From: a bacterium
Lineage (GTDB): Bacteria > Patescibacteriota > Patescibacteriia > Patescibacteriales > JAKAJF01
Length of the DNA stretch: 64,000 nt
Assembly: GCA_021788015.1 (NCBI GenBank)
Contig: JAJYLD010000001.1
Location: 81,581-145,580 of the forward strand
Direction of reading: 5' to 3'
A model generated the notes under the pieces. It was not told the DNA's origin. It made no database searches and worked only from the letters and a program-made list of their open reading frames with translations. Shown here in pieces: positions 17,206-59,250 of this stretch (its first letter is position 1; each line of letters starts with the position of its first letter). The position numbers and the translations under genes are program-made.

Positions 17206-17283
17206 CGCGAATCGCGAATATATTTTTGGTTTTATAACAAAAAAGTTCGGAGCATTCGGATTTTAATTCGGAGCATTCGGATT
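17206..17283. repeat. short tandem repeats after the SEDS gene (cgcgaat x2; 17-nt unit repeated at 21-nt period)
   Basis: cgcgaatcgcgaat at 17206-17219; ttcggagcattcggatt at 17246-17262 and 17267-17283. Confidence 0.8.
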
Positions 17284-17298
17284 GTATTTTAAATATTT

Positions 17299-17946
17299 AT
17301 GACAAGCAAAGAAATCAATTTAAGCGCACAAAAAAGAGAGAAAAGCGGATTGTCGCAATTGCGAAATCAAGGCTTTATTCCGGCTGTCGTGTACGGAGCG
17401 GGAGGGGTGAATGAAAATTTAAAAGTCAAAAAATCGGAATTTGATAAAGTTTTCGAAGCGGCCGGCGAATCCCATCTTATCAATTTGGGAATCGAAGGCG
17501 GATCGAACGTCAAGGTCTTGGTAAAAGACGTGCAAAGAAATCCGGTAAAAAATACGATTTTGCATATCGATTTTTTTAAAGTCGATATGGACAAGAAAAT
17601 TACAACCGAAATTCCTTTGCGTTTTGTCGGCGAATCGAAAGCGGTCAAAGAACAAGGCGGAACGTTGGTTAAAACGATCGATATGGTCGAAGTGAAATGT
17701 TTGGCCAAAGACTTGGTTGACACGATCGAAGTCGATATCGCCGCTCTGAAAGATTTGCACGACGCGATCAGAATGCACGATCTAAAACTTCCGCAAGGAA
17801 TCGAATTGGTCAGTCAGACCGACGAGATAGTGGTCATGGTCGCGGAACAGCAAAAAGAAGAGGCTCCGGCGGCTCCGGCGGCGGAAGCGGAAGCGACCGC
17901 GCAAGTCGAAGCGGAAGGAGAGAAAAAGGAAGAAGCGGGAAAATAA
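17299..17946 (+). CDS. rplY: 50S ribosomal protein L25/Ctc
   Basis: LRNQGFIPAVVYG...VLVKDVQRNPVKNTILHIDF typical of L25; acidic Ala/Glu tail. Confidence 0.9.
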   Translation: MTSKEINLSAQKREKSGLSQLRNQGFIPAVVYGAGGVNENLKVKKSEFDKVFEAAGESHLINLGIEGGSNVKVLVKDVQRNPVKNTILHIDFFKVDMDKKITTEIPLRFVGESKAVKEQGGTLVKTIDMVEVKCLAKDLVDTIEVDIAALKDLHDAIRMHDLKLPQGIELVSQTDEIVVMVAEQQKEEAPAAPAAEAEATAQVEAEGEKKEEAGK

Positions 17947-18017
17947 ACGCGAAGAATTCTACATAAAAATTTTAAAAGCACTTCGAGTCCGGGGTGCTTT
18001 TATATTCGCACAAAATC

Positions 18018-18106
18018 AACTCAAAACTCAAAATTCAAAACTCCCCAAGTTTTTGGTTTTAAGTTTTAGTTTTGACATTTGCGTTTTGAGTTTTGAGATA
18101 AAAAAG
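18018..18106. repeat. inverted arrays of heptamer repeats (aactcaa / ttttgag)
   Basis: aactcaa-aactcaa-aattcaa-aactccc, then gttttaa-gttttag...gttttga-gttttga; ctcaaaactcaaaa and ttttgagttttgag are reverse complements. Confidence 0.8.
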
Positions 18107-18119
18107 AGATGGCAAAATT

Positions 18120-18998
18120 TTATTTAATTTCAATTCCAACCAATCTATCAAGACAACGCGCGTCTTTTCTTATCTTAAAAGTATGGGGAGGAAGTTCATT
18201 TTTGGCGGTGGCGCGAAAAATTTTTACCTGCCTGTGATCGATTTCGCAAAGAAGAATGACCTCGGTGTTACTTTTTTTAATCCATTCTCTGATTTGCCCG
18301 AATAATTCAATATAGTATTGCATTCCGTTTTCGCCGGCGACCAAAGCTGATTTCGGTTCGTATTTCAATTCGGGAGCCGTTTCATTGTATTGATCCGGCG
18401 ACAAATAGGGGAGATTGGCGGTCAAAATAATTTTCAATTTTAAATTTTCAATTTTCAATTTTTTTAAAACAGGTTCTAGAAGATTTCCCCGTAAAAAAGA
18501 TATTTTATTTTCCACTCCGTGCGACTTTGCATTTTTACGTGCGACGGTTAATGCTTTTTGTGAAATGTCTATTCCAAAAAATTTTTGATTTTTGGTTTTT
18601 GGTTCTTTATTCAATATTTTTGCCAACGTGATAATGATACATCCCGACCCAGTACCGATATCAATGACATGCGTCACGCGTTGCGCGTTATGCGTTATGC
18701 GATCCAGCGCTTCCTCGGTCATCAATTCCGTTTCGGGACGAGGGACGAGAGTGTCCCTGGTAACAATAAAATCTAAACTATAGAACTCTTTGTGTCCGAG
18801 AATGTATGCCAAGGGTTCATGTTTTATCCGGCGGGAAATTTTTAATTTTAAATTTTTAATTTTAAATTTTGGTATTTCATATTCAGGATGCGCCAAAATA
18901 AAAGCTCGCGGTTTTTTTAAGACAGCTTCTAAAATCAAATCAAAATCCAATGAATCGACCTTGTTGAAATATTCAATCCGTAAATCTTTTATTGACAT
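18120..18998 (-). CDS. prmC: release factor glutamine N5-methyltransferase
   Basis: PLAYILGHKEF, LVPRPETE, IDIGTGSGCI, NLPY (NPPY variant); contains three in-frame heptamer-repeat tracts. Confidence 0.85.
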   Translation of the reverse strand: MSIKDLRIEYFNKVDSLDFDLILEAVLKKPRAFILAHPEYEIPKFKIKNLKLKISRRIKHEPLAYILGHKEFYSLDFIVTRDTLVPRPETELMTEEALDRITHNAQRVTHVIDIGTGSGCIIITLAKILNKEPKTKNQKFFGIDISQKALTVARKNAKSHGVENKISFLRGNLLEPVLKKLKIENLKLKIILTANLPYLSPDQYNETAPELKYEPKSALVAGENGMQYYIELFGQIREWIKKSNTEVILLCEIDHRQVKIFRATAKNELPPHTFKIRKDARCLDRLVGIEIK

Positions 18999-19050
18999 GA
19001 GTTTGTGTCCGTATTATCATTAAAATTTATTTTTTTCATAGGGGGACATA

Positions 19051-19550
19051 ATGGGGGCGATAAATAAAATTTTTTACCTGCACGTTCTTTTTGAACATTT
19101 AAAGAACGAAAATAAAGGTCTTTTCATAGCAACAAGGGGGAAACAAACAATTTTATCGGAGAATGGGAGTATTACGGCTTTGACGCGCCTAATCTTAATG
19201 CGGAATCATTTTTTTTCGAAATTATTGAATTTCTGGAATCAAAAGGATTGAAAATCTGTAAAAAAGACTTAAAAGATCAACATGGTTATGCGGAATTTTT
19301 TGTCGACGAAAAAGGTTTGGCGGCCGTATCTTTTTTGCGGCCATGGAACGTGCACGGATATTGTTTTCCAGAAACTCAAACAAGGGGGGGTATGAAAAAA
19401 TTCTTTGTAAAGAAGAAAACCAAGTCTCTTGAGGCCGTCTTAAAAAAGAAAATGGGCGAAGCCGGATTTCGTAAATTCCGGAAATCAGCCACTGATTTCA
19501 TATCTACTGGTAATATGTGGATGCTTCCTTACGAGCGCAACATGTTTTAA
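19051..19550 (+). pseudogene. possible frameshifted gene (two overlapping ORFs in different frames)
   Basis: The 19248 frame stays open back to 19116 with protein-like sequence but no ATG; the ATG ORF 19051-19251 overlaps it; likely shift near the G5/A-rich run at about 19136-19150. Confidence 0.35.
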
Positions 19551-19586
19551 ATGTAGACTTAAAAAGCGGTGAACAGCACCGCTTTT

Positions 19587-20648
19587 TTATTTTTTCATTC
19601 GCAATCTCAAATCTTCCTGTTTCAACGCATTGATCATTTCTTCCAAATCTCCGTCCATGAATCTGTCTATCGAATGCAGGGTAAGTTTTATTCGGTGATC
19701 GGTGACACGATCCTGCGGGAAGTTATAGGTTCTGACTTTGTCGCTGCGGTCTCCGGAACCGATCTGACTTTTTCTTTCCGCCGATTCTTTTTCCCGTTTT
19801 TCTTCTTCCATTTTAGCCAAGAGCCTTGATCTCAAAATCTGCAAAGCTTTTTCTTTGTTTTGGTGTTGGGATTTTTGATCCTGACAGCTCACGATTAACC
19901 CGGTCGGAATATGCAAAATGCGGATGGCCGAATAGGTCGTGTTAACCGATTGGCCGCCCGGACCGGACGAGCAGAAAGTATCGATGCGGATATCTTTCGG
20001 TTCGATTTTAAGATCGACTTCTTCCGCTTCGGGGAAAACGGCGACGGTCGCGGCCGAGGTATGGATGCGTCCCGCTTTCTCCGTTTCCGGCACCCTTTGC
20101 ACGCGGTGCGTTCCGGCTTCGTATTTTAAATTTCCGTAAACATTTTTTCCATTCACTCCGAAAATAATTTCCTTAAAACCGCCGATGCCGGTGCGGTTTG
20201 AATCCATGACATCAATTTTCCAGCCTTTTCTTTCGGCGTATCGCGAGTACATGCGAAAAAGATCGGCGGCGAACAAAGCGGACTCGTCTCCGCCGGTTCC
20301 GGCGCGGATTTCGATAATTGCATTTTTTTTATCATTCGGGTCGGCCGGATGAAGTTCCAATTCGATTTTATTTCTCAGGTCTTTGCTTTTTTCTTCATTC
20401 TCATTTATTTCCTCTTCGGCCATTTTTATCAGTTCCTCATCGGTCTCGCTCTTTAAAATCTCCCGGCTTTGTTTCAAATTTTCTTCAATTTTTTCCAATT
20501 CTAAAACCATCTCAACTATTTCTTTGAGTTCGGCCTGCTTCTTTCCGAGCTCCGCCATCTTTTTCGGATCAGACGTAACTTCGGGAGAAAAGAGCTTTTC
20601 ATTAAGCTCCGCGTATTCTTTTTTCACTGTTTCGAATTGCTTGTCCAT
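19587..20648 (-). CDS. prfA: peptide chain release factor 1
   Basis: GGQ motif ([11 protein letters not shown]) and [17 protein letters not shown] (PxT region). Confidence 0.95.
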
Positions 20649-20779
20649 TTTCTCAATTTTCTGCTAGAATTAAATTAAGTACGAATAAAGTATAGCAAAT
20701 TAGGGGGAAATGGCAAGTAATTTCCGTTGCGTCATAATCCTTTGCGAGACGATTCCGCTGCAATGTAAAATATAATAAT

Positions 20780-21370: not shown

Positions 21371-21378
21371 TTACCCTC

Positions 21379-21407
21379 GCTGGCTCCGGGTTGCACCCGG
21401 AGCCAGC
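21379..21407. repeat. GGCTCC-family hairpin
   Basis: gctggctccgggt-tgc-acccggagccagc, perfect 13-bp stem; no downstream T-run on the + strand. Confidence 0.75.
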
Positions 21408-23174: not shown

Positions 23175-23870
23175 ATGACAAAAGTTCCAACAATCGAAGA
23201 GATGCTTAAGGCAGGAATGCACTTCGGGCATCGCACATCAAAATGGCATCCGAAAATGGCGCCTTTTATTTTTGGCTCAAGAAACGGAGTGCACATTATT
23301 GATTTGGCCAAAGCGCAACAAAAATTGAACGAAGCTTTGGATTTTATAAAAAAGAGCGCCACCGAAGGAAAATTAATCCTTTTAGTCGGTACAAAAACTC
23401 AGGTTAAAAACGAATTAAAGAAAATTGCCGAAGAAGCGGGTGCTCCGTATGTTTCCGAAAAATGGCTTGGCGGGTTCTTGACTAATTTCCCTGTCATCAG
23501 GAAAATGATCAAAAAATACAAAGATCTTTTGGAACAGAAAGAAACAGGCAGGTTGGACAGATACACCAAAAAGGAGAGATTGGAAATTGAGCGCGAAATC
23601 GCTAGACTCGAATCAAGAGTCGGCGGCTTGGTCAACTTGAACAGAATCCCCGACGCAATCTTTATCTGGGATCTTAAAAAGGAAAAGACCGCTTTGGCGG
23701 AAGCGAAAAAGAAGAACGTCCCGATTATCGCCGTTTGCGACACCAATGTCAGTCCGGAAGGAGTAAGCTATGTCATTCCGGCGAACGACGACGCGACAAA
23801 AACGATAAAGATGATTTTAGGTTTGGTTAGGGACGCGATTAACGAAGGGAGGATTGAAGCAAAAAAGTAA
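23175..23870 (+). CDS. rpsB: 30S ribosomal protein S2
   Basis: MLKAGMHFGHRTSKWHPKM, typical S2. Confidence 0.97.
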   Translation: MTKVPTIEEMLKAGMHFGHRTSKWHPKMAPFIFGSRNGVHIIDLAKAQQKLNEALDFIKKSATEGKLILLVGTKTQVKNELKKIAEEAGAPYVSEKWLGGFLTNFPVIRKMIKKYKDLLEQKETGRLDRYTKKERLEIEREIARLESRVGGLVNLNRIPDAIFIWDLKKEKTALAEAKKKNVPIIAVCDTNVSPEGVSYVIPANDDATKTIKMILGLVRDAINEGRIEAKK

Positions 23871-23883
23871 AACGATCTCATAT

Positions 23884-24003
23884 CGCGTAACCTGCCTACC
23901 GGACAGGCAGGCGCGTAACGCGGAACACGTAACAAAAGTATAAAAAATTAAAAATAAACTCAACCCGTTAACTCTTTAACCCATTAACCGAATAATAAAA
24001 TAA
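23884..24003. repeat. short-period tandem repeats and hairpin after rpsB
   Basis: cgcgtaa flanking hairpin cctgcct-accggac-aggcagg, then cgcgtaa-cgcggaa-cacgtaa; 8-nt units cccgttaa-ctctttaa-cccattaa-ccgaataa-taaaataa at 23964-24003. Confidence 0.75.
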
Positions 24004-24055
24004 TTTTTTTATTGGTTATTAACGAGTCAACGGCTTAACGAGTTGCTATTAAAAT

Positions 24056-24886
24056 ATGGACATGAATACAATAAAAGAACTGCGAGATAAGAGCGGGGCT
24101 GGCATGGTTGATTGCAAAAAGACTTTGGAAGAAGCCGGCGGTGATCTTGAAAAAGCCATGGAAATATTAAGAAAAAAAGGAATCGCCAAAGCGGCGAAGA
24201 GAAGTGATCGTCAGGCCGGCGAGGGCGTGATTAAAGTCGAAGTGGATCCATCCGGGAAAGAAGGTTATATGCTCGAAGTCAACGCGGAAACGGATTTTGT
24301 CGCGCGTAACGAACAATTCATGAAATTTGCCGATGACGCATTCACTATTTTAAAATCGAAAAAAACCGCTGGCCGTGATGCTTTATTAAGCGCGGAAATG
24401 GACTCGGCTACTGTGAAAGGTATCATGGACAATTTAAGCGGAGTAATCGGAGAAAAATTGGATATAAAAGGAGCCGTGGTTTTATCTTCTGACGGAAGCA
24501 TTGCCGGATATTCGCATATGGGCGGAAGGATTGGAGTCTTAGTTTCTTTGAATAAACCGGTGAAAGAAGATTTGGCCCGCGATATCGCCATGCAGATCGC
24601 GGCGTCCAATCCGAAATATATCTCTCCGGATCAGGTTCCGGCCGCAGAAATCGAAAAAGAAAAAGACATCTACCGCGAGCAGATTAAAAAAGAAGGCAAG
24701 CCGGAAAATATGGTTGAGAAAATCCTTGAAGGAAAAATTAACAAATATTTCGAAGATGTTTGTTTGGTAAAACAGGAATACATAAAAGACGACGGCAAAA
24801 AAGTTCAGGATATTTTGGGCGACGCGAAAATCGAGAAATTCATAATTTTCAAATTGGCCGGGTCGCCGTTAACCTGCGGGATTTAG
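24056..24886 (+). CDS. tsf: translation elongation factor Ts
   Basis: IKELRDKSGAGMVDCKKTLEEAGGDLEKAMEILRKKG (UBA-like N-terminus) plus EF-Ts core. Confidence 0.95.
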   Translation: MDMNTIKELRDKSGAGMVDCKKTLEEAGGDLEKAMEILRKKGIAKAAKRSDRQAGEGVIKVEVDPSGKEGYMLEVNAETDFVARNEQFMKFADDAFTILKSKKTAGRDALLSAEMDSATVKGIMDNLSGVIGEKLDIKGAVVLSSDGSIAGYSHMGGRIGVLVSLNKPVKEDLARDIAMQIAASNPKYISPDQVPAAEIEKEKDIYREQIKKEGKPENMVEKILEGKINKYFEDVCLVKQEYIKDDGKKVQDILGDAKIEKFIIFKLAGSPLTCGI

Positions 24887-24969
24887 AAATAAGAAAAATA
24901 AGAGAAACAAGATCCAAAATAATCAAAAAATTTTTTCTTATTTTTCTTTTTATTCTTATTTTAATTTTC

Positions 24970-25845: not shown

Positions 25846-25868
25846 ACAAATAAAATTTCAAGAGGTAG

Positions 25869-25894
25869 AGACGTGCCATTAGGCACGTCTTTTT
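25869..25894 (+). terminator. rho-independent terminator
   Basis: agacgtgcc-atta-ggcacgtct followed by TTTT. Confidence 0.85.
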
Positions 25895-25950
25895 GATCTT
25901 GTTTTCTTAAAAACATTTATAATAAAGAAAAAACGCGAAAGGGGGGCGCC

Positions 25951-26292
25951 GTGCTTTTACCTTTAATATCCAAGAAAAAAGTAACCGATCCGGAAGAAGC
26001 GGCTCAAATTATCATGTTCCGGTGTGAAAATTTGATTTTGGAATGCTACAAAAAGAAAGATGAACTCGAAGTTATAATTAAAGAATTGGTTTTACTCATG
26101 AAATCATTGATTGAAGCGGGGTTTAAAGATGAGGTGGAATATATCGATACTTTATTCGGAGCTGCTTTTAAACCCGAGCCCACATTAACAAGGGATGATA
26201 TTAGAAAGCTTATTTTTTTACACAGGGTTTTAAGGAGGCGAATAAAATGTAGACTTCTTGTAGATTTTTATATGGGTCTATATTTATCATGA
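25951..26292 (+). CDS. hypothetical protein (GTG start)
   Basis: 113-aa ORF, weak evidence only. Confidence 0.4.
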   Translation: MLLPLISKKKVTDPEEAAQIIMFRCENLILECYKKKDELEVIIKELVLLMKSLIEAGFKDEVEYIDTLFGAAFKPEPTLTRDDIRKLIFLHRVLRRRIKCRLLVDFYMGLYLS

Positions 26293-26467
26293 ATAGGGTT
26301 AACACCTGTTCTTTTTTTATTGTAATGATAAAATTTTTAATGCGGCTCTGGTTGGGCCACTCCGCGGGTGGTTCTTTTCTATACGTTACGCGTTATGAGT
26401 TATGCGATTTGTACTCTATCCCCGAAATGTTCTATAATAAATGTATAAATGTCTCAGTCTTATGAAT

Positions 26468-26582
26468 CCCGTTAGAGGCCGCGATCGCTTCAAGCGGGAA
26501 TGGATTAAAATATAATTTGTTTAATAAATAATTATGCAGATTGTGTCATCAAATTTTTTGATCGCGATCTGCCTCTAACGGG
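26468..26582. repeat. 115-bp element bounded by inverted repeats, abutting the gap start codon
   Basis: cccgttagaggc(cgcgatcg) at 26468-26487 vs (gatcgcg)atctgcctctaacggg at 26560-26582; ATG of gap at 26583. Confidence 0.75.
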
Positions 26583-27593
26583 ATGAACATTGCTATCAAC
26601 GGCTTTGGCAGAATCGGCCGGGCCACTTTTAAAGCGCTTCTCACAAAACCGAAAATGAACATCGTCGCCATAAACGACTTGACCGATACAAAAACTTTGG
26701 CGAATCTGTTAAAATACGACAGTTGCTACGGGATTTATGAAAAGAAAATAGGATACGCGGAAAACGGCATAATCGTGGGCGGAAAGAAATATAAAATTAC
26801 GGCCGAAAAAGATCCGACAAAATTGCCTTGGAAAACCTTAAAAGTCGATGTTGTTATCGAATCGACGGGCAGATTCAGGGCAAAGGAAGAGGCCGGCATG
26901 CATATCGCCGCGGGCGCGAAAAAAGTGATTATTTCCGCGCCGGCAAAAGGGGACGGCGTAAAAACTATCGTTCTCGGAGTCAATGAAAATGATTTTAAAA
27001 AAGAAGACAAAATCGTTTCCATGGCTTCATGCACGACAAATTGCCTCGCCCCGCTTACGGAAGTGATTCGACGGAATTTCGGCATTAAAAAAGCGATAAT
27101 GTCAACGGTCCATTCTTATACGGCCGACCAGCGCCTTGTCGACGGACCGCATACAGATCCGCGTCGATCCCGCGCGGCCGCTTTGAATATCATTCCGACA
27201 ACAACCGGCGCCGCCATAGCGGTTACCAAGACCATTCCCGAACTCGAAGGAAAATTTGACGGCATGTCGATGCGCGTCCCGACACCGGTCGGATCGATTT
27301 GCGACGTTGTTTTCGTTACCGAGAAGAAAGTCGATAAAGAAAAGGTTAACGCGGCAATCATAGCCGCGACCAAAAGCGAAAAATTGAAGGGAATTTTGGA
27401 AGCGACCGACGAACCGATCGTATCATCCGATATCGTCGGCAATCCGGCAAGTTCAATCGTGGATTTATTTTTAACCAAAGTGATTGACGGCGATCTTTTG
27501 AAAATGATTTCCTGGTATGATAACGAATGGGGATATTCGAACCGTTTGGCCGATTTATGCGAATATATTGCCAAAAATAAATTGATAAAATAA
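26583..27593 (+). CDS. gap: type I glyceraldehyde-3-phosphate dehydrogenase
   Basis: INGFGRIGR, SCTTNCLAP active site, WYDNEWGYS. Confidence 0.96.
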   Translation: MNIAINGFGRIGRATFKALLTKPKMNIVAINDLTDTKTLANLLKYDSCYGIYEKKIGYAENGIIVGGKKYKITAEKDPTKLPWKTLKVDVVIESTGRFRAKEEAGMHIAAGAKKVIISAPAKGDGVKTIVLGVNENDFKKEDKIVSMASCTTNCLAPLTEVIRRNFGIKKAIMSTVHSYTADQRLVDGPHTDPRRSRAAALNIIPTTTGAAIAVTKTIPELEGKFDGMSMRVPTPVGSICDVVFVTEKKVDKEKVNAAIIAATKSEKLKGILEATDEPIVSSDIVGNPASSIVDLFLTKVIDGDLLKMISWYDNEWGYSNRLADLCEYIAKNKLIK

Positions 27594-27596: not shown

Positions 27597-28322
27597 ATGG
27601 AAAATAATCTATCGGCGGTTTCCGAGCTTTATAAAAATTCTTTCGCGATCTATAAAAAAGAATTTTGGAAACTCATCGGCATTTCATTAGTTCCGATTTT
27701 GGGAATTTTTCCGCTTTTCGCGATTTATCTCATATATTATTATTTCGGATCGTCGCTTGATCACGGATTTTTGTACGCCGTAAAAATTTTAATTTTAATT
27801 TTGGGAATCTTGGGCGTTTTTTTAGCGATTTACGCCGCGATTTTGGCGGATATCGGCATGAAAATTTTTCTGCGGGACAAAAACGGCATCGGCCAATCTT
27901 TGCGAAACGGGAGGAAAATATTCTGGAAATACGTCGCTCTGGAAATTTTGAAAATCGTGTTCATTTTATTATGGTCGTTGCTCTTAATCATCCCCGGTTT
28001 GATTTTTTTGGTTTTTTACAGCTTTGCCGAATTCGTTTTGATATTTGAAAATTACGCCCCCCGCGCCGCCTTGAAACGAAGCAAAGAATTGGTCAAAGGA
28101 AATTGGTGGGCCATTGCCTGGCGTTTGGTTTTGTTCATAATCATTTTTTATCTTCTGTTTTTAATTTTGTCGTTGCCGGCGTCTTTCTTCGCGGCCGATT
28201 CCGGTCCCTATCAGTTCTGGCAGTTTATCATCAAAATAATCAGATTTTTGGTCGGTCCGTTTTTTACCGTGTATATGTTTTTGATTTTTAAAGATTTGTT
28301 AGACATAAAAAAGAAAACATAA
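27597..28322 (+). CDS. integral membrane protein, hypothetical
   Basis: 241 aa, 5-6 TM helices. Confidence 0.6.
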   Translation: MENNLSAVSELYKNSFAIYKKEFWKLIGISLVPILGIFPLFAIYLIYYYFGSSLDHGFLYAVKILILILGILGVFLAIYAAILADIGMKIFLRDKNGIGQSLRNGRKIFWKYVALEILKIVFILLWSLLLIIPGLIFLVFYSFAEFVLIFENYAPRAALKRSKELVKGNWWAIAWRLVLFIIIFYLLFLILSLPASFFAADSGPYQFWQFIIKIIRFLVGPFFTVYMFLIFKDLLDIKKKT

Positions 28323-28792
28323 TGGATAAACAATCCCCTCAAACCAAACTTGAAAACTCGGAACGCAAATTTCCTCGCGTCGGCATCGGCGTTATGATTG
28401 AAAATAAAAAAGGAGAAATTCTTCTCGGCTTAAGGCAAGGATCGCACGGAGCCGGAGAATGGAGCTTCCCCGGAGGTCATTTGGAGTGGGGCGAAACTAT
28501 TTTTGAAACGGCCAGACGAGAAGTAAAAGAAGAAACCGGACTTGATGTTTATAAATTTGAACTCATCTCTGTTTTTGATGAATTGCGTTATTTGGAATCG
28601 GAAGGAAAACATTATTTGGGGATAGGCGTGAAAGCGGTCTATAATGGTGGCGATCCAAAAGTTATGGAAGAGGAGAAATTTAAAGAATGGGACTGGTTTG
28701 CTGTCGATCAATTACCTAAAAGGTTGTTTGAAGGGACGGAGATTATGCTCAAAAATTTTAAAGAGGGAAAAATCTACCAAAATTATGTTTAA
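28322..28792 (+). CDS. NUDIX hydrolase
   Basis: Nudix box GGHLEWGETIFETARREVKEETGL. Confidence 0.85.
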   Translation: MDKQSPQTKLENSERKFPRVGIGVMIENKKGEILLGLRQGSHGAGEWSFPGGHLEWGETIFETARREVKEETGLDVYKFELISVFDELRYLESEGKHYLGIGVKAVYNGGDPKVMEEEKFKEWDWFAVDQLPKRLFEGTEIMLKNFKEGKIYQNYV

Positions 28793-29267
28793 TATATTTT
28801 CAGACAAAAACAAAAAAAAGCGGGTCGGGGTTTTTTCTTTGACCTGCGATGAGGGGTGCAGCATTTATCTGACGGAAATTTTTAATAAGAAATTATTGGG
28901 GTGGCTCGAGAAAATCGAGATTGTAAATTTTTTAGCAATCAAAGATTTCGTGGAAATAAAAAATTTGGACATAGCTTTGGTTGAAGGCGTGGTAACGAGC
29001 GAAAAAGACAAAAAGTTGATCGAAGAAGTCAGAAAAAATACGAAAGTCCTTGTCGCTATGGGCACTTGCGCGATAACCGCCCTGCCTTCGGGCCAGAGGA
29101 ATAATTTTAATAAAGACCAGCTCGCGCAAATAAAGGACCATTTGAAAAAATATAAATTTTTGCCAAAAGCTTTGTCGGTAAAAGAAGCGGTAAAGACGGA
29201 CGACGAAATTCCCGGATGCCCGATTGATCCGAAGAAGTTTGTGGAGGTGTTTGAGAAATATATTTAG
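28785..29267 (+). CDS. [NiFe]-hydrogenase small subunit (NuoB/delta-like, short form)
   Basis: 160 aa from MFNIFSD; Cys motifs LTCDEGCS, GTCA, GCP; sits upstream of the large subunit. Confidence 0.7.
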   Translation: MFNIFSDKNKKKRVGVFSLTCDEGCSIYLTEIFNKKLLGWLEKIEIVNFLAIKDFVEIKNLDIALVEGVVTSEKDKKLIEEVRKNTKVLVAMGTCAITALPSGQRNNFNKDQLAQIKDHLKKYKFLPKALSVKEAVKTDDEIPGCPIDPKKFVEVFEKYI

Positions 29268-29300
29268 CTTGTAGGTTGTAGGAAGTAGCTCGTAGGAATT
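29268..29300. repeat. heptamer tract (cttgtag-gttgtag-gaagtag-ctcgtag) and left inverted repeat
   Basis: Starts right after the stop at 29265-29267; agctcgtaggaatt (29287-29300) pairs with aattcctacaagct (29694-29707). Confidence 0.8.
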
Positions 29301-29314
29301 TATTATTAAAATTT

Positions 29315-29683
29315 ATGGAGGGAAATAATAAAATTAGTTCTTATAAAGATTTGGTTGTTTGGCAAAAATCAATGGAGCTGGTTACGGAGATTTACAAGAT
29401 AACAAAAAATTTCCCAAAAGAAGAGATTTATGGTTTGATATCTCAAATGCGGAGATGTGTAATTTCTATTCCCTCCAATATCGCCGAAGGAAGAAGGCGG
29501 GGAAGTAAAAAAGAATTTTTAAGGTTTTTATTAACAAGCTATGGTTCCGGAGCTGAATTGGAAACCCAAATTGAAATAGCTAAAAGGTTAAAATTTTGTG
29601 AGGAAAATAAATTTTCAGAGGCGGGTCAACTTTTGGATGAGATTATGAGAATTTTGAATAAAATGACATATAACTTAAATTAA
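29315..29683 (+). CDS. four-helix-bundle protein (23S rRNA intervening-sequence protein family)
   Basis: DLVVWQKSMELV..IYKIT..FPKEEIYGLISQMRRCVISIPSNIAEG....GSGAELETQ signature. Confidence 0.85.
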   Translation: MEGNNKISSYKDLVVWQKSMELVTEIYKITKNFPKEEIYGLISQMRRCVISIPSNIAEGRRRGSKKEFLRFLLTSYGSGAELETQIEIAKRLKFCEENKFSEAGQLLDEIMRILNKMTYNLN

Positions 29684-29718
29684 GCTATAAGCTAATTCCT
29701 ACAAGCTACCAGCTAAAC
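29684..29718. repeat. heptamer tract (gctataa-gctaatt-cctacaa-gctacca-gctaaac) and right inverted repeat
   Basis: Five 7-nt units directly after the stop at 29681-29683. Confidence 0.8.
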
Positions 29719-35187: not shown

Positions 35188-35212
35188 CGCATATCGCGTA
35201 TCGCGTATCGTG
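35185..35212. repeat. heptamer tract after cca (tagcgca-tatcgcg-tatcgcg-tatcgtg)
   Basis: Starts at the stop codon of cca. Confidence 0.8.
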
Positions 35213-35222
35213 GAACACTTAA

Positions 35223-55161: not shown

Positions 55162-55216
55162 TTTTACACCTCCGATCTTTTTCTTTAATTTTAAAATAAA
55201 GTTTACAATTGTCAAC

Positions 55217-55558: not shown

Positions 55559-55662
55559 CCAACCTGCCCGCAATGCTTCGCATAGCGATGCGGGCGGGGA
55601 AGTTTCGGGGACTCCAATTTCCCGACACCTGTCGGGACTCAATTCCGCCCCCAGACCCCGTG
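55500..55662. repeat. dispersed modular repeat, copy 2
   Basis: Same four blocks as 31018-31146 plus extra hairpins gcccgca...tgcgggc and cccgaca-cc-tgtcggg. Confidence 0.75.
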
Positions 55663-55700
55663 GTGTTTCTAATGTCTAAATTTTGTTATAATTTTTAGTT

Positions 55701-56513
55701 ATGTTAGGATTTTTTGATTCGGGCCTGGGAGGGCTGACAATTTTAAAAGAGGTGGAAAAAATAATGCCGGAATATTCGTATGTTTATTTGGGCGATAATG
55801 CTCGTGCGCCTTACGGTCCGCATGGCGAAGAAATGATTTATAATTTCACGAAAGAGGGCGTTGCGGAATTATTCGGAAGGGGAACGGAGCTTGTTGTCCT
55901 GGCCTGTAATACTTCTTCGGCCGTCGCTTTAAAAAAAATTCAACAAGAATTTTTGCCGAAAGAATTTCCCGATAAGCGCGTACTCGGAATAATCATTCCG
56001 ACTGCCGAAGAGATCGGTAATACTTCTTCGGCCGAAGAAATTGGTGTTTTGGGCACGGAAGCGACGATCAATTCAAAAGTTTACGAAAAAGAAATTGAAA
56101 AGCATTTTCCGGAATTAAAAATTCATGGCCAATCCTGCCCGCTTTTGGTTCCGATAATTGAAGCGGGAGAAACGGAATGGGAAGGTCTGGAATCGGCTAC
56201 GAAAAAATATCTAGTAGAGCTTTTTAAAAAAAGCGAAAAAGTAGATTCAATAATTTTGGGGTGCACGCATTATGGCATTATTGAAGATTTGATTGCGAAA
56301 AACATTCCCGCAAATGTCAAAATAATTTCACAGGGTAAGATTATAGCTGAAAAATTAAAGAATTATTTGAGCAGGCATCCCGAAATCGACGGGAAAATCG
56401 AAAAGAACGGAAAGAGAATTTTTTTGACCACGGAAAATTCGGATAGAATTTCCAAATTGGCGGGCTTATTTTTGGGCAAGGCGGTAAATTTTGAGAAGAC
56501 CCGACTCGATTGA
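55701..56513 (+). CDS. murI: glutamate racemase
   Basis: GFFDSGLGGLT, VLACNTSS, ILGCTHY catalytic Cys motifs. Confidence 0.92.
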   Translation: MLGFFDSGLGGLTILKEVEKIMPEYSYVYLGDNARAPYGPHGEEMIYNFTKEGVAELFGRGTELVVLACNTSSAVALKKIQQEFLPKEFPDKRVLGIIIPTAEEIGNTSSAEEIGVLGTEATINSKVYEKEIEKHFPELKIHGQSCPLLVPIIEAGETEWEGLESATKKYLVELFKKSEKVDSIILGCTHYGIIEDLIAKNIPANVKIISQGKIIAEKLKNYLSRHPEIDGKIEKNGKRIFLTTENSDRISKLAGLFLGKAVNFEKTRLD

Positions 56514-56527
56514 TTGCGAATCGCGAA
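56514..56527. repeat. heptamer pair ttgcgaa-tcgcgaa after murI
   Basis: gcgaatcgcgaatat is identical to the tract after the SEDS gene (17205-17221). Confidence 0.8.
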
Positions 56528-56632
56528 TATTTTACCAACTTTGATAAACTTGTGGATTTGTAAATTAACTTAACAAATTCTTTTTTTTGTGGTAAATTGA
56601 AATCAGGCCTAGAAGAGAGGCTTATTTTTAAT

Positions 56633-56703
56633 CGGGCTGTGGTATAACGGTATTACGCACGCTTCGGGTGCGTGTAATCCGGGTTCAATTCCCGGCAGCC
56701 CGA
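56633..56703 (+). tRNA. tRNA-Pro (anticodon CGG), CCA not encoded
   Basis: Acceptor CGGGCTG/CAGCCCG, anticodon stem CACGC/GCGTG, loop TTCGGGT, T-arm CCGGG-TTCAATT-CCCGG, discriminator A. Confidence 0.85.
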
Positions 56704-56740
56704 CATCTTCCTCTTTCCGACTGCAGTCGGTAGTAATAAA

Positions 56741-58873
56741 ATGAATTTTTTTAATTCGATTTACATAGCCATTCAACATTCGTCCGTATTCGGATATTTG
56801 CTTTTTGCTTCGGTTTTTTTTCTCGAATCGTTGGCTTTTATCGGACTTCTGATTCCCGGCACCGTTTTCTTGATGATTGCCGGATTTTTGGTCGCTCGCA
56901 ATATTTTCGACCCCGAGATAATTATTCCACTCGCTCTTTTTTCGACTCTGCTCGGCGACCTGATAAGTTTTTATTGGGGTACCAAAGGAAAAGATTATTT
57001 CAAATTTGAAAATAAATTATTAAAAACGTCATATCTCGAAAAAGGAGAGAAATTTTTCGACGCTCATGGAAATAAAAGCGTTTTTTTGGGAAGATTCATC
57101 GGACCGATTCGGCCGCTAACTTCGTTTATCGCCGGACTGTGCCGAATGAAAAAAATAAAATTTTACATTTTAAATTTTTTAAGCGCCGTTTTTTGGGTCG
57201 GAATTTACTTTGTTTTGGGATATTTCTTCGGTCAAGCTTTCCGGGTCATCGAATTGTGGTCCAACAGGCTCGGGCTTTTTCTTTTCGGACTTTTTATTTT
57301 TTTCATCCTGGTTTATTTGTTGAAAATTTTTGTTATCAAAGAAAGCAAATACGTCTTTTCCTTCCTTAAATCAATTTTTGAATCGATAAAAGAAGCGTTA
57401 TTTGAAAATGAAGACGTTAAAAAACTGATCGAAAAGTATCCGAGAATTTTCAGATTTATTAAAAAAAGATTAAATTATAAAATATTCACCGGTTTTCCTT
57501 TAACATTGCTCGCTGTCGTTTTCATTTATTTCATTTTTTCATTTTTGGCCGTACTGAGAAACGTATTAACTTCCGGAGTTATAGTGGATATCGATTTGAG
57601 GGTCCTGAATTTGCTCGAAATTTTTCGCCATCCCTTGCTAACCAGAGCCTTTCTTTGGATAACTGTTTTGGGCAAGGGCAGTCTTATCGCGATTTTTACC
57701 GTTTTGTTTTCCATTCTTCTTTTGGCGTGGAAAAAAAGATATTATCTGATTTCTTTGTGGGTGGCTGTCGTAAGCAGCGCGATTTTTGAACTTTTGCTAA
57801 AAATGATTATTAAAAGACCGAGGCCGGAAGACGCGGTTTACATCGAAAAAGGTTTTTCTTTTCCAAGCGGTCATGCCGCTTTGTCCACGGCTTTGTACGG
57901 TTTTTTGATTTATTTTTTCTGGCGTAATCTCAAAAGATGGAAGACAAAAATCAATATTTTATTTTTTAATATATCGTTAATCATAATCGTTTCCTTAAGC
58001 AGACTGTATTTGGGCGTTCATTATTTCAGCGATGTTTGGGCCGGTTTTCTTTTGGGCGCTTCGGGATTGATTCTCGGTATCACTATCGGAGAATGGCTTG
58101 CTTTCAAATTTGAATATAAAAAAGAAAAAATTTCGATAAATTCAAAAATGAAAATCATTTCAGTCGCCGTCATTTTGTTGGCCGTCGGTTCGTATTTTTT
58201 TTCCGCCCGCAGTTTCAAGCCTCTTTTAAAGGACGAAGAACCGCGGAATCCGATCGTAATAAACTCTCCATACGACCTTTTAAATTCAACAAGTTTTCCT
58301 AGATACACCGAAACTTTAACGGGAACGAGACAAGAGCCTTTAAGTTTTGTAATTATCGCCGACAATCAGGAAGAAATAATCAACATGTTTGAAAAAGCCC
58401 ATTGGCATTTGGCCGACCAGATCGATTTTCATTCTTTGGGGAAAATGGTTAAAGCCTTGGGAGAAAAGAAAGGTTATGAAGACGCGCCGATGACGCCTTC
58501 GTTTTGGAATACCGAGGTTCATACTTTGGGTTTTGAAAAACTTGTCAATTCAAACAGTATCAAAAAAAGGCATCATATAAGATTATGGGATACGGGTTAC
58601 GTTTTGAAAAACGGCAAAGTCATTTACGTCGGTTCGGCAAGCTTTGATGTCGGTTTGAAATGGGGATTAAGTTTTATGGAATTGGGGTTAACGCATAAAA
58701 TCAGTCCCGATGTCGATACGGAAAGAGAACTTGTTTTTGGCGATTTATCGAAAACGGGATTGATTCGGAGCGCGAAAGAAGAACAATTCGTTCCGCCAAC
58801 TTTGGGACAAAATTTTACCGGAGACCAATTTTTTACGGACGGGAAAATTTATATTATCACGGTTAAGCAATAA
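56741..58873 (+). CDS. DedA(VTT)-PAP2 phosphatase-LssY_C-like fusion membrane protein
   Basis: N-terminal DedA pattern (FLESLAFIGLLIPG...GRFIGPIRP), PAP2 motifs KRPRP...PSGH...SRLYLGVHYFSD, soluble C-terminal domain. Confidence 0.8.
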   Translation: MNFFNSIYIAIQHSSVFGYLLFASVFFLESLAFIGLLIPGTVFLMIAGFLVARNIFDPEIIIPLALFSTLLGDLISFYWGTKGKDYFKFENKLLKTSYLEKGEKFFDAHGNKSVFLGRFIGPIRPLTSFIAGLCRMKKIKFYILNFLSAVFWVGIYFVLGYFFGQAFRVIELWSNRLGLFLFGLFIFFILVYLLKIFVIKESKYVFSFLKSIFESIKEALFENEDVKKLIEKYPRIFRFIKKRLNYKIFTGFPLTLLAVVFIYFIFSFLAVLRNVLTSGVIVDIDLRVLNLLEIFRHPLLTRAFLWITVLGKGSLIAIFTVLFSILLLAWKKRYYLISLWVAVVSSAIFELLLKMIIKRPRPEDAVYIEKGFSFPSGHAALSTALYGFLIYFFWRNLKRWKTKINILFFNISLIIIVSLSRLYLGVHYFSDVWAGFLLGASGLILGITIGEWLAFKFEYKKEKISINSKMKIISVAVILLAVGSYFFSARSFKPLLKDEEPRNPIVINSPYDLLNSTSFPRYTETLTGTRQEPLSFVIIADNQEEIINMFEKAHWHLADQIDFHSLGKMVKALGEKKGYEDAPMTPSFWNTEVHTLGFEKLVNSNSIKKRHHIRLWDTGYVLKNGKVIYVGSASFDVGLKWGLSFMELGLTHKISPDVDTERELVFGDLSKTGLIRSAKEEQFVPPTLGQNFTGDQFFTDGKIYIITVKQ

Positions 58874-59169
58874 TGATTGTTATGTCTTTTATTTTCAGGG
58901 AAAAAATAAAAAAAGAATTGGATAAAAAAAAAGAAATATATTTGCGCGTTAAAGCGAGGCCGGGCGCGAGCCGAACGGCCTTTTCGAGCGTTTCGAACGA
59001 TCCCGAAGGCGAAATTTTTAAAATTGACGTGGCCGCCCCGCCGGAGAAAGGAAAGGCGAATCAGGAGTTGATTAAATTTTTATCTCACGAACTTGGAGGA
59101 GAAGCGCTTATAATTTCTGGCCAGAGCAGTAAGTTGAAATTAGTAAAAATTAGAAATCCTAAATTCTAA
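58873..59169 (+). CDS. DUF167 (YggU-like) protein
   Basis: VKARPGASRTAF...IDVAAPPEKGKANQELIKFLS; start may be 58882. Confidence 0.7.
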   Translation: MIVMSFIFREKIKKELDKKKEIYLRVKARPGASRTAFSSVSNDPEGEIFKIDVAAPPEKGKANQELIKFLSHELGGEALIISGQSSKLKLVKIRNPKF

Positions 59170-59250
59170 ATCCTATATCTGAAACCTTTTCGAATTTTGG
59201 TTATTGAATTTTGAATTTATTTCGGATTTCGTGCTTCGGATTCCGAATTT
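59154..59250. repeat. heptamer tracts spanning the DUF167 stop and the intergenic region
   Basis: aaatcct-aaattct-aaatcct-atatctg; then gaatttt/gaattta and ttcggat/cttcgga units. Confidence 0.75.

Follow-up and report, generated by a model that had tools for sequence, protein, structure and literature searches.

Degenerate heptanucleotide repeat tracts in a Patescibacteria genome and their association with a four-helix-bundle gene

Distribution of heptanucleotide tracts in the window

The window, i.e., the whole 64,000-nt stretch of Patescibacteria DNA analysed here, contains short tandem arrays of degenerate heptanucleotides (65–93% matches by Tandem Repeats Finder, TRF) between and within genes such as prmC, rpsB, tsf, the hydrogenase subunit genes and the CCA-adding enzyme gene. 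Comparison with a shuffled control, which had been named beforehand, revealed an excess of period-7 tracts over dinucleotide shuffles within the window, with 7–13 observed against 0–1.2 depending on the threshold. The strict threshold gave 7 lag-7 segments against 0.0 (30 dinucleotide shuffles), and looser ones gave 10–13 against 0.7–1.2. Under the same control, lags 4, 5, 8, 10, 11 and 13 stayed mostly around chance level, lag 8 reaching 6 segments against 1.45 at the loosest threshold, and the elevation of lags 6, 9 and 12 was expected from coding periodicity. TRF reported period 7 at 18018–18043, 18051–18097, 35188–35210 and 59154–59179 and period 8 at 23962–23989, and the weaker tracts at 23912, 26384, 29265 and 29681 were detected by a lag-7 diagonal score (cut-off of at least 10). 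Every tract listed in the first-pass annotation was present, either exactly or shifted by 1–3 nt.

That annotation had placed the tracts at gene boundaries, each with its own unit. The positional bias was borne out, as 7 of 13 tracts were intergenic in a window that is 86% coding (binomial p = 7e-4), and five overlapped or abutted the upstream stop codon (29265 TAG, 29681 TAA, 35185 TAG, 56511 TGA and 59167 TAA). However, the tracts are not exclusive to boundaries, and the strongest ones, overlooked before, lie within ORFs. Likewise, units did differ among tracts, but two unit families recur, CGCRTAA (about 18667–18701, 23877–23932, 26379–26406 and 35188–35215) and AAAATTN (18429, 18836, 34064 and 57150). 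The mobile element was indeed free of tracts; since the host DNA at 1–17 kb was likewise tract-free, this contrast has little weight.

Three tract regions fold into hairpins that carry no gene. Between the convergent L25 and prmC genes, a 5′ arm of (AACTCAA)×3.7 and a 3′ arm of the (TTTTGAG) type occupy 18018–18097 (TRF scores 45 and 52), and their RNA fold (−23.9 kcal/mol, z = −3.4) was matched by 0 of 200 shuffles; a separate, GC-rich, terminator-like hairpin adjoins them at 17975–18003. The other two lie on the forward strand. The hairpin after rpsB (23884–23933, z = −2.5) has CGCGTAA-type arms and the core CCTGCCTACCGGACAGGCAGG, followed by cgcgtaa-cgcggaa-cacgtaa, and the hairpin at 23957–24045 (−20.3 kcal/mol, z = −4.3), with arms of 8-nt period (AACCCATT type), ends about 10 nt 5′ of the tsf start codon.

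No significant fold was found for four further tract regions, starting at 17206, 26384, 35184 and 59154 and all read on the forward strand. A solo tract of the (TTACGCG/TTATGCG) family (26384–26417) stands directly 3′ of a terminator-like hairpin at 26354–26374, and the solo tract (CGCGTAT)×3.3 (35184–35212) overlaps the TAG that terminates the CCA-adding enzyme gene, with tRNA-Ala following after 22 nt. The gap of about 129 nt between yggU and uppS is filled by three abutting period-7 tracts at 59154–59251 (TRF), (AAATCCT)×3.7, (TTTTGAA)×4.4 and (ATTTCGG)×4.7, the first of which codes for the yggU C-terminus RNPKF*. The weakest member is CGCGAAT×2 (17206–17221; the two units span 17206–17219), 13 nt past the rodA/ftsW stop codon. 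Its reported repetition at 56514–56527 held in that a 15-mer, GCGAATCGCGAATAT, does recur; the second copy actually lies at 56516–56530 on the forward strand, 2 nt past the murI stop codon, and is weakly significant, two matches being reached in 5 of 100 shuffles.

The strongest tracts comprise four in prmC and one in the CCA-adding enzyme gene. On the reverse strand, prmC contains (AATTTTC)×4.9 at 18429–18462, coding for LKIENLKLKI within the loop that precedes the NLPY motif (position 3), where tracts with other units occur in other Patescibacteria; (TTTTTGG)×3.3 at 18582–18604 (TRF), in the loop that joins LAK to DIS (position 2); a tract of the (CGCATAA) family at about 18668–18701, coding for RITHNAQRVTH immediately 5′ of the IDxGTGSG motif (position 0); and (AAATTTT)×5 at 18836–18870, coding for KFKIKNLKLKI as part of the N-terminal domain (position 1). 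The CCA-adding enzyme gene carries (AAAAATT)×5 on the forward strand (34064–34098, TRF score 63), which codes for KKLKIKNEKLKI. Across six independent loci, prmC made up 4.5% of the sequence and contained 15 of the 41 tracts (p = 1e-10). In locus L032, an identical 29-nt tract occurs at two positions of a single gene.

The element between the hydrogenase genes and its syntenic relatives

Between the genes of the hydrogenase small and large subunits lies a 454-nt element, all parts of which are read on the forward strand. Its 5′ arm, of (CTTGTAG)-type units ×4.5 (29265–29296), starts at the TAG stop of the small subunit gene, and its 3′ arm, of (GCTACAA)-type units ×5 (29681–29718), runs from the TAA stop of the enclosed gene to 4 nt upstream of the large subunit start. 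The MFE fold and the centroid fold both pair the two tracts, which are the two arms of one stem of about 30 bp whose loop contains a four-helix-bundle gene (29315–29683) of the 23S rRNA IVS protein (IVP)/S23p family. The gene product matched PF05635 (E = 4.5e-40), TIGR02436 (129.6 bits, cutoff 24) and PDB 2gsc (E = 1.3e-22). The score of the DGR Avd model lay under its cutoff. The family is not known to have any catalytic or mobility function. No other tract of the window uses the arm unit, and no target-site duplication was visible at the junction. At 29265, the first unit is similar to the 3′ end of the small subunit gene itself (TATTTAG), from which it may derive, and this fits growth in place.

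Comparison with syntenic relatives showed that the element is an insertion. The hydrogenase genes are separated by 5 nt in L161 and by 1 nt in L162; the 53-nt gap of L163 contains a tract, and that of L164 (403 nt) contains a nested heptamer hairpin without cargo (−172 kcal/mol, z = −18.6). The hydrogenase protein termini at the junction are intact in all five cases, including the window. Other orthologous junctions of relatives also either lacked tracts or had unrelated ones. The L25/prmC gap of L161 is 78 nt long and tract-free, and yggU and uppS overlap without a gap in L163, where the CCA-adding enzyme gene carries a tract with a different unit at the identical codon position. The core motif of the rpsB hairpin, CCTGCCTACCGGACAGGCAGG, is also present in L164 and L001.

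Association of the tracts with IVP genes

The bracketing of IVP genes by tracts recurred in the majority of unrelated genomes, plasmids and phages examined, and the sole other IVP gene among the first 80 loci, in L032, showed the same stem-around-ORF architecture as the window. Across 80 metagenome loci, lag-7 tracts numbered 4.42 per kb within the ±120-nt flanks of IVP genes and 0.33 per kb elsewhere, a 13-fold difference; lag 8 gave 1.89 against 0.17 per kb, and all other lags were flat beside IVP genes in these loci. Among the 69 IVP loci with both flanks available, a tract was found upstream in 39, downstream in 33 and on both sides in 28. All six annotated IVP genes examined on cyanobacterial plasmids were bracketed, as were those of six out of six viral loci, one of which has 8-nt units. 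In Xanthomonas, repeat #15 of the GGGAATC type abuts or overlaps the start of the IVP homolog XCC0516 in a published table (PMC4692102). A strong association of the tracts with this gene family is thus shown in many genomes.

The arms of these elements have a constant layout. They have a median length of 33 nt. The distance from the end of the upstream arm to the ATG has a median of 6 nt, and the stop codon marks the start of the downstream arm. Of the 5′ arms, 36 of 40 were G-rich; all 31 of the 3′ arms were C-rich; and 27 of 41 upstream arms had stops in all three frames. In 24 loci, the downstream unit was the reverse complement of the upstream one with at most one mismatch in 13 and at most two in 20, and arm pairs were never direct repeats. 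The arms thus covary, units varying from locus to locus while complementarity persists. Tracts of one genome were also shown to share units: within a locus, 34% of tract pairs differed by at most 1 nt, the corresponding values being 3.8% for pairs from different loci and 2.4% for random 7-mers, and at sites at least 700 nt apart sharing still amounted to 23%, against 2.4–3.8%.

Relation to known repeats and possible origins

Heptanucleotide repeats have been known from cyanobacteria since 1990 and, to our knowledge, have never been explained. The tracts of the window match this STRR-type class in having about 4–5 units, in lying close 3′ of stop codons and in often forming inverted pairs. The first-pass annotation knew of no description of such a class, but STRR and the repeats of Xanthomonas and Beggiatoaceae are described examples. 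A lineage-specific process, offered there as one option, is contradicted by the finding of the same kind of tract in other Patescibacteria, in a Saganbacteria MAG and in several further phyla. No STRR from Patescibacteria were reported in the literature searched, and their occurrence there is new.

Cyanobacterial STRR are 7-bp repeats forming hairpins, e.g., between hupS and hupL (PMC2670836), and the tracts of the window resemble them in unit length, mostly intergenic position, hairpin capacity, several unit families per genome and even the location between the genes of the small and large hydrogenase subunits. On plasmids of Nostoc, Calothrix and Anabaena, heptamer arrays abut four-helix-bundle genes. 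The window arrays differ in being shorter (3–5 units) and more degenerate, in their Patescibacteria host and in that several lie in ORFs at recurrent loop positions. The Xanthomonas GGGAATC and Nostoc GGGGAYT repeats have mostly four, often heterogeneous units, are 89–93% intergenic with the upstream ORF end on average 28 nt away, form 70–75 convergent inverted pairs, are absent from plasmids and concern different genes in related species (Rehm et al., 2015, PMC4692102). They are like the window tracts in unit number, intergenic position and inverted pairing, whereas Xanthomonas has one dominant G-rich unit, interpreted as G-quadruplex-forming, and the window has many units, mostly AT-rich or CG-containing. 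The TAACTGA repeats of Beggiatoaceae, Cyanobacteria and Bacteroidetes (MacGregor, 2015, PMC4679880) likewise form arrays (2–6 copies) at gene junctions with stops in three frames, some overlapping stop codons or lying in ORF peripheries, but they consist of a single unit, are nearly always direct rather than inverted and stand mainly immediately 5′ of start codons.

An anatomical parallel to the hydrogenase-junction element is found in ORF-containing 23S rRNA intervening sequences (IVS). That of Coxiella measures 428–444 nt, has a 28-bp terminal stem with an S23p ORF in the loop and is cut by RNase III (PMC4990558). With Leptospira included, such IVS (about 430–450 nt, stem of about 28 bp) share complementary termini and the four-helix-bundle ORF with the window element (454 nt, about 30 bp), but they reside in helix 25 or 45 of 23S rRNA and RNase III excision is known for them, whereas the window element lies between protein-coding genes and its arms have 7-nt periodicity. 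REPIN-RAYT systems also combine dispersed intergenic hairpins of inverted pairs with a repeat-flanked gene; in the window, however, that gene encodes a four-helix-bundle protein instead of an IS200/IS605-type transposase, and the arms differ in sequence within the genome.

The chief rival to the reading as stem-loop insertions is that the tracts are a pure mutational by-product, in which DNA polymerase slips preferentially in a 7-nt register at any site, and arrays persist where neutral, as in intergenic DNA and protein loops, and then decay through point mutations. Its appeal lies in the period-7 specificity of the excess in the window and in many unrelated loci, in the degeneracy of the tracts, in the similarity of the first unit at 29265 to the 3′ end of the gene and in the fact that in-ORF tracts sit in loops longer than those of proteins from other phyla. 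In addition, heptanucleotides are described as the most frequent type of long simple-sequence repeat in the majority of prokaryote genomes, and a 7-nt polymerase footprint has been proposed (Mrazek, 2007, as cited in PMC4679880 and PMC4692102). Nevertheless, slippage does not predict arm pairs that stay complementary as the unit changes, the sharing of units between distant sites, the concentration beside one gene family, the constant G-rich/C-rich polarity or the duplicated tract in L032, and we regard it as unlikely on its own. The slippage or duplication suggested in the first-pass annotation may well lengthen arrays, but it fails on complementary arms, shared units and the IVP link.

Less probable still is a signal read through its periodicity by a protein, e.g., a post-transcriptional regulator, or a multimeric nucleic-acid-binding protein with one unit per subunit, which would govern the translation or stability of adjacent genes. 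The tracts do stand a few nucleotides from stop and start codons, their usual 4–5 units recall four-helix-bundle homologs, which show five chains in crystals and have been called homopentamers, and regulator binding was proposed for TAACTGA repeats (MacGregor, 2015, PMC4679880). Orthologous junctions without tracts or with unrelated ones and the presence of tracts in ORFs speak against it, and because units differ among tracts of one genome, sequence-specific reading is unlikely. Intrinsic terminators or 3′-end signals, also suggested earlier, would suit the tracts right behind stop codons and those folding into hairpins, but the terminator scan did not call heptamer hairpins; its sole call within a tract was a weak 5-pair stem (26389–26406) in a solo tract. 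Canonical terminators instead stand beside tracts, one called by the scan (26354–26374) and one seen in the sequence (17975–18003), termination between co-transcribed hydrogenase subunit genes would be harmful, and in-ORF tracts exist as well, so this explanation is very improbable. The least credible is phase variation, in which gain or loss of units switches genes on and off: a 7-nt unit does shift the frame, and prmC of a few relatives has perfect arrays, (TACTCAC)×5 in L003 and (CGTAATT)×4 in L161, but tracts lie in or beside housekeeping rather than surface or variable genes, and those of the window are degenerate and would slip poorly.

We therefore favour, with a probability of roughly 55%, the reading that the tracts are STRR-like arms of IVS-like stem-loop insertions acting in RNA. 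Several observations run against it: the hairpin at 18018–18097 has a G/C polarity opposite to that of IVP hairpins, five tract regions of the window have neither a partner arm nor a significant fold, no IVP remnant was found in the cargo-less hairpins, the IVP gene is antisense to the flanking operon in two cyanobacterial loci, and in-ORF tracts, which are concentrated in prmC, lie in direct orientation and so cannot be hairpin arms. The missing target-site duplication, an IVP arm unit found in no other tract of the window, the possible descent of the first unit at 29265 from the end of the gene and the lack of a known catalytic or mobility function of the family likewise count against it. 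Under the stem-loop insertion reading, insertions would lodge exactly at cistron junctions, and two mutually reverse-complementary arrays of about 33 nt would form a stem of about 30 bp in the transcript. The full form, with the IVP-family gene in its loop (29265–29718), would have the anatomy of ORF-bearing rRNA intervening sequences excised by RNase III, and the three hairpins without cargo would be the form lacking the gene. The remaining intergenic tracts may represent single arms beside stop codons, and the in-ORF tracts may be relics that kept the reading frame and were tolerated because they lie in surface loops of PrmC and of the CCA-adding enzyme. Arms would spread via copying inside one genome, and slippage in 7-nt steps would lengthen them. 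Stop triplets in three frames may provide translational insulation, and a role of the stems at the RNA level, in RNase III processing or 3′-end protection, is plausible.

Heptanucleotide tracts in the window

The window derives from a Patescibacteria (CPR) genome. Every heptanucleotide tract listed in the first-pass annotation was confirmed in the sequence. Tandem Repeats Finder reported period 7 at 13 places in the window (65–93% matches), and match runs were scored along each diagonal with 30 dinucleotide-preserving shuffles as the control. The results showed 7 lag-7 segments (match runs at offset 7) at the strict threshold versus 0.0 in the 30 shuffles, and 10–13 versus 0.7–1.2 at looser thresholds; over all thresholds the window gave 7–13 tracts against 0–1.2 in shuffles. 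Lags 4, 5, 8, 10, 11 and 13 were mostly near chance (lag 8 gave 6 versus 1.45 at the loosest threshold), and lags 6, 9 and 12 were elevated, as predicted by coding sequence. The tract observation is therefore confirmed.

According to Pfam annotation, the reported tracts sit among housekeeping genes, including rodA/ftsW (16089–17192), L25 (17299–17946), prmC (18120–18998, minus strand), prfA (19587–20648, minus strand), rpsB (23175–23870), tsf (24056–24886), gap (26583–27593), the NiFe hydrogenase small subunit gene (ending at 29267), a 23S_rRNA_IVP family gene (29315–29683), the hydrogenase large subunit gene (29722–31017), the CCA-adding enzyme gene (33694–35187), murI (55701–56513), and yggU (58873–59169) followed by uppS. 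Downstream of tRNA-Ala (35235) lie a serine recombinase gene and then a type I restriction system. Rfam found three tRNAs and no rRNA in the whole window.

The placement of the tracts at gene boundaries held in part. Seven of the 13 fall in the non-coding 14% of the window (p = 7e-4), and five touch or run into the upstream gene's stop codon, but 5–6 lie inside ORFs; the strongest ones, of which prmC contains four and the CCA-adding enzyme gene one, had been missed. Nor is each unit private to its tract, since the units group into families such as CGCRTAA, with two recurrent families within 64 kb. The CGCGAAT tract at 17206 is present but comprises two units, and the recurrence of its 15-mer (17207 and 56516) was dropped as evidence on its own because it was too weak. 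The mobile element is indeed free of tracts, but the host DNA at 1–17 kb is equally empty, and the lack of tracts in the element was therefore dropped as an argument.

Several other features were recorded in the same regions. The large serine recombinase gene (35223–36824, minus strand) overlaps at its 3′ end the opposite-strand tRNA-Ala (35235–35308), and beyond it the block 35223–56500 carries the type I restriction-modification system (about 43.3–49.2 kb) and other genes. In L163, a syntenic locus of a relative, the CCA-adding enzyme gene is followed by genes for an HD-domain protein, a prolyl isomerase and an RNHCP protein, and then by a VTT/PAP2 gene; the three intervening genes have no counterparts in the window. 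This gene order implied that the block is an insertion, and no repeat of the tRNA end marking its far boundary was found. Between the gap and small-subunit genes, L161 (6699–9485) and L163 (6656–9481) hold two additional hydrogenase-associated subunits, Complex1_51K and a Fer2_4/Fe_hyd_lg_C protein, in place of which the window (27597–29267) and L162 hold a NUDIX gene, accompanied in the window only by a DUF975-like membrane protein gene. The PSP1-to-gap spacer measures 737 nt in the window (25846–26582) versus 95–109 nt in L161 and L163. It contains a 113-aa ORF (25951–26292) with no Pfam or NCBIfam match, which was rejected as a second kind of cargo because neither a family match nor convincing flanking arms were present, and a perfect 14-nt inverted repeat (26466–26479/26571–26584) extends into the gap start codon as far as its second base. 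After tsf (24887–24968), 9-nt-period arrays, A-rich AAATAAGAA ×2.9 facing T-rich TTTTTCTTA ×3.4, form a weak hairpin (−18.1 kcal/mol, z = −1.9); the same junction in L163 carries a period-7 tract, (AAATTCT)n. The interval 17246–17290, upstream of L25, contains an 18-nt direct repeat, ttcggagcattcggatt ×2, and this region self-folds (−22.4 kcal/mol), but not better than shuffles.

The element between the hydrogenase genes and its counterparts

The tracts at 29265–29296 and 29681–29718 are reverse complements of each other and, in both MFE and centroid folds, form an approximately 30-bp stem around a four-helix-bundle gene. This gene belongs to the 23S rRNA intervening-sequence protein (S23p) family, referred to here as IVP (PF05635, E = 4.5e-40; TIGR02436, 129.6 bits), and its product matches PDB 2gsc, a five-chain entry for XCC0516 of Xanthomonas campestris. 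Identity with the Avd protein of diversity-generating retroelements was rejected, with NF033474 scoring 34.9 bits against a cutoff of 80 and hydrogenase subunits as neighbours. The ORF-bearing 23S rRNA intervening sequence of Coxiella measures 428–444 nt, has a 28-bp terminal stem with an S23p ORF in the loop, and is excised by RNase III (PMC4990558). The window element likewise has an S23p/PF05635 ORF in the loop, and its complementary termini form the stem of about 30 bp; unlike the rRNA intervening sequences, which lie in helix 25 or 45, it is located between the hydrogenase small- and large-subunit genes. Among the first 80 loci a second family member was found only in L032, a Patescibacteria prmC locus, where it is bracketed alike. 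As a separate observation, homologs of the four-helix-bundle protein show 65–74% identity across many Patescibacteria lineages, versus at most 55% for PrmC (P0122–P0240 versus P0002–P0120), which fits either strong constraint or horizontal movement of this small gene.

To examine the association across genomes, we collected 80 metagenome loci with homologs of the window IVP protein, 69 of which had both flanks available. A period-7 tract was present within 120 nt upstream in 39/69, downstream in 33/69 and on both sides in 28/69 of these loci. The density of period-7 tracts was 4.42 per kb in the IVP flanks versus 0.33 per kb over the remainder of those loci, and that of period 8 was 1.89 versus 0.17 per kb, with enrichment in no further period. 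Among 24 two-arm loci, the downstream unit was the reverse complement of the upstream unit with at most one mismatch in 13 and at most two in 20, whereas direct-repeat arms were never seen. The units themselves vary between loci, indicating that complementarity is conserved and sequence is not. The median arm length of 33 nt comes close to the five or so units (about 28–35 nt) noted at first. The upstream arm ends at a median of 6 nt from the start codon, the downstream arm begins at the stop codon, and 27 of 41 upstream arms carry stops in all three frames. The 5′ arms are G-rich in 36/40 and the 3′ arms C-rich in 31/31; by symmetry this is true of either strand, so it was not retained as an orientation rule relative to the IVP gene and describes hairpin polarity only. 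The window hairpin at 18018–18097 has the opposite polarity.

The association extends to replicons of other kinds. In 72,556 plasmids, IVP homologs were almost only cyanobacterial (Nostoc 12, Calothrix 4, and others), and all six annotated ‘four helix bundle protein’ plasmid genes that we inspected abut heptamer arrays. On a Nostoc edaphicum plasmid (L165) the arms are (AGTAGGG)×8 and (TCCCTAC)×5, between the ribonucleotide reductase beta and alpha genes, and on an Anabaena sp. 90 plasmid (L170) they are (AGGTGAC/AGGGAAC)×39 and (CTGTCAC)×4, between cas6 and cas4. All six viral IVP loci are bracketed, one of them by 8-nt units. A Calothrix plasmid (L166) carries a heptamer-armed four-helix-bundle gene between toxin-secretion genes; there and in L165 the gene lies on the strand opposite to the surrounding operon. 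The start of XCC0516 itself is overlapped by GGGAATC repeat #15, the gene being given as ‘conserved’ only (Rehm et al. supplementary table, PMC4692102). No paper linking the four-helix-bundle family with heptamer repeats was found in the literature searched, most subscription journals lying outside the search.

Insertion at junctions, shared units and tracts within genes

The databases contained no close relative of the window prmC through which unit turnover could be followed; homologs of its product come under the source names Parcubacteria, Falkowbacteria and Moranbacteria, and the best non-self match has 55% identity. The comparison was therefore made with four syntenic loci (L161–L164) found through homologs of the hydrogenase large subunit (78–81% identity). 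The small-to-large subunit junction measures 5 nt in L161, 1 nt in L162, 53 nt in L163, 403 nt in L164 and, in the window, 454 nt; in each of the five, the C-terminus of the small subunit and the N-terminus of the large one are intact. The L163 junction holds an (ATTTTGA)n tract, and the L164 insert is a cargo-less nested hairpin, paired arms around no IVP gene: the outer arms are (AAAATGG)n/(CCATTTT)n, the middle stem is perfect over 31 bp, the inner arms are (AATGACG)n/(CGTCATT)n, and at the centre lies a CCTGCCTACCGGCAGGCAGG hairpin that is also found 3′ of rpsB in the window (fold −172 kcal/mol, z = −18.6). The L163, L164 and window inserts together imply at least three independent events at one junction of ≤5 nt. 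Similarly, the yggU and uppS genes, which overlap in L163, stand apart in the window, where 129 nt of insert filled with tracts lies between them. No target-site duplication was evident. At these junctions the comparisons point to insertion rather than to an ancient signal.

No decayed IVP genes were found within the cargo-less hairpins. For the solo tracts, single arms with no partner, the regions folded (26340–26440, 35180–35236, 56505–56600, 17190–17300 and 59125–59262) did no better than shuffles, and these tracts are not claimed as hairpins. An approximately 20-nt palindromic hairpin, CCTGCCTACCGG(A)CAGGCAGG, was seen in three different Patescibacteria genomes (window 23891–23911, L164 4130–4149 and L001 178–197), in two of the three at the centre of heptamer-armed hairpins; a similar palindromic motif may encode peptides such as PGELAGRQ in some PrmC homologs.

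A survey of 80 prmC neighbourhoods, one genome per species, revealed enrichment in several Patescibacteria loci, with 6–10 period-7 tracts per 12–21-kb locus in L001, L002, L003 and L032, and further tracts in one MAG each of Saganbacteria, proteobacteria and Poribacteria and in Bacillota and Chloroflexota, usually in the form [unit]n, spacer, [reverse-complement unit]n. Tract pairs within one locus were ≤1 nt apart in unit in 34% of cases, and in 23% when at least 700 nt distant, against 3.8% for pairs from different loci and 2.4% for random 7-mers drawn from the same loci. Units are also common to in-ORF and intergenic tracts of a single genome (CGCRTAA in the window; likewise L032).

The in-ORF tracts concentrate in prmC, which holds 15/41 tracts in 4.5% of the sequence (p = 1e-10, six independent Patescibacteria loci), making the gene a hot spot. 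Alignment of PrmC proteins placed the tract-encoded residues in four recurrent loops, located before RRxKxEPxAY, before IDxGTGSG, between LAK and DIS, and before NLPY, which are shorter in non-Patescibacteria proteins and whose units vary by genome. Tract peptides include ITNYELRITNY from (ATTACGA)n and KFKIKNLKLKI from (AAAATTN)n; L161 prmC has (CGTAATT)×4 at the place of the ITNYELRITNY type, and an identical 29-nt tract lies in two loops of L032 prmC. The prmC tracts (L001–L004, L032, L161 and window 18120–18998) are in-frame and sometimes duplicated within one gene in direct orientation. The CCA-adding enzyme gene of L163 carries a tract with a different unit at the same codon position as in the window.

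A known repeat class and its interpretation

Heptanucleotide arrays were first recognised in bacteria 35 years ago and serve widely in strain fingerprinting. Mrazek and colleagues are cited as having found that heptanucleotides outnumber the other long simple-sequence repeats in most prokaryote genomes, and as having proposed a 7-nt polymerase footprint (cited in PMC4679880, PMC4692102). In filamentous cyanobacteria, 7-bp STRR sequences, named for being short, tandemly repeated and repetitive, form hairpins, notably in the gap separating the hydrogenase genes hupS and hupL, and lack an established function (PMC2670836); the hydrogenase junction hit in the window corresponds to this site. The GGGAATC repeats of Xanthomonas mostly have four units, are 89–93% intergenic at a mean of 28 nt from the upstream ORF, often occur as convergent inverted pairs, are absent from plasmids and lie beside different genes in sister species (PMC4692102), and in our assessment the window matches each of these traits. 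The TAACTGA repeats of Beggiatoaceae carry stops in all frames and sometimes overlap ORF ends (PMC4679880).

Like STRR sequences, the window tracts are head-to-tail tandem 7-nt copies in excess over chance and over other unit lengths, lie mainly in intergenic DNA near the end of the upstream ORF, though 5–6 are inside ORFs, and form convergent stem-loop pairs (18018/18051–18097, 29265/29681 and 23884–23933). As to the iteration of one or a few units across a genome, the 64 kb covered here shows many units with two recurrent families, and units are shared within loci at 34% against 2.4–3.8%. The tracts of the window are a newly found occurrence, in Patescibacteria, of a repeat class that is known but lacks an explanation, and the literature searched on heptanucleotide repeats made no mention of Patescibacteria. 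Accordingly, the first-pass observation stands and its interpretation is partly right: it fails in its statement that no description of such an element class was known, as the STRR, GGGAATC and TAACTGA repeats show, and in its suggestion of a lineage-specific process, the same tracts being present in other Patescibacteria and several further phyla.

The tracts are most likely STRR-like arms of stem-loop insertions resembling intervening sequences, on the basis of the observed excess of period-7 tracts, their stems, the insertions seen on comparison with relatives, the sharing of units within genomes and the association with a four-helix-bundle gene. The main rival, pure slippage, explains why the arrays have this period and why they decay, but leaves the covarying inverted arms, the unit sharing and the gene association unexplained. 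As for intrinsic termination, the terminator scan called none of the heptamer hairpins, its sole call within a tract being a weak stem of 5 pairs at 26389–26406, in a solo tract, and separate terminator-like hairpins lie at 26354–26374 (scan) and 17975–18003 (seen in the sequence); the heptamer hairpins are not canonical terminators. Phase-variable contingency repeats were likewise rejected, given the 65–93% matches of the tracts and their position beside housekeeping rather than variable or surface genes, and a REPIN-RAYT system was rejected because the arm-flanked gene encodes a four-helix bundle and not an IS200/IS605-like tyrosine transposase. The reading as arms of stem-loop insertions does not account for the solo tracts that do not fold, the direct-orientation prmC tracts and the polarity at 18018–18097.

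If the tracts are such arms, their stems would act in RNA, as RNase III substrates or as 3′-end protectors, and the 5′ arms, their unit length of 7 not being divisible by 3, could halt translation arriving from upstream in whichever frame. Unit number would change by slippage, and arms would be copied between sites. More tentatively, at a probability of roughly 0.3, STRR, GGGAATC and the window tracts could all be ends of a single family of IVS-like stem-loops, widespread but so far unrecognised. Its full form would carry a gene for a pentameric, Avd-related four-helix-bundle protein, and its non-autonomous derivatives would be the hairpins without cargo and the solo tracts. Arms of 7-nt period would be recognised, or their formation helped, by this protein, possibly with each subunit taking one unit, in keeping with the usual 4–5 units; the match between a pentamer and about five units is noted here as a coincidence. 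Such a family, if real, would explain the arrays in rRNA, RNase P RNA, operon junctions, plasmids and phages.

These results tie the heptanucleotide arrays to a partner, the four-helix-bundle family also encoded within rRNA intervening sequences, and to an anatomy, a stem around a gene or around nothing, and make the question of the arrays testable in culturable organisms such as Nostoc and Xanthomonas. The added value lies in the reproducible link with the four-helix-bundle/IVS protein module, through which, if it holds genome-wide, the STRR problem gains an experimental entry. For annotation, the tracts give spurious ORF extensions and odd C-termini. In Patescibacteria, the array process writes short peptides into the surface loops of essential enzymes.
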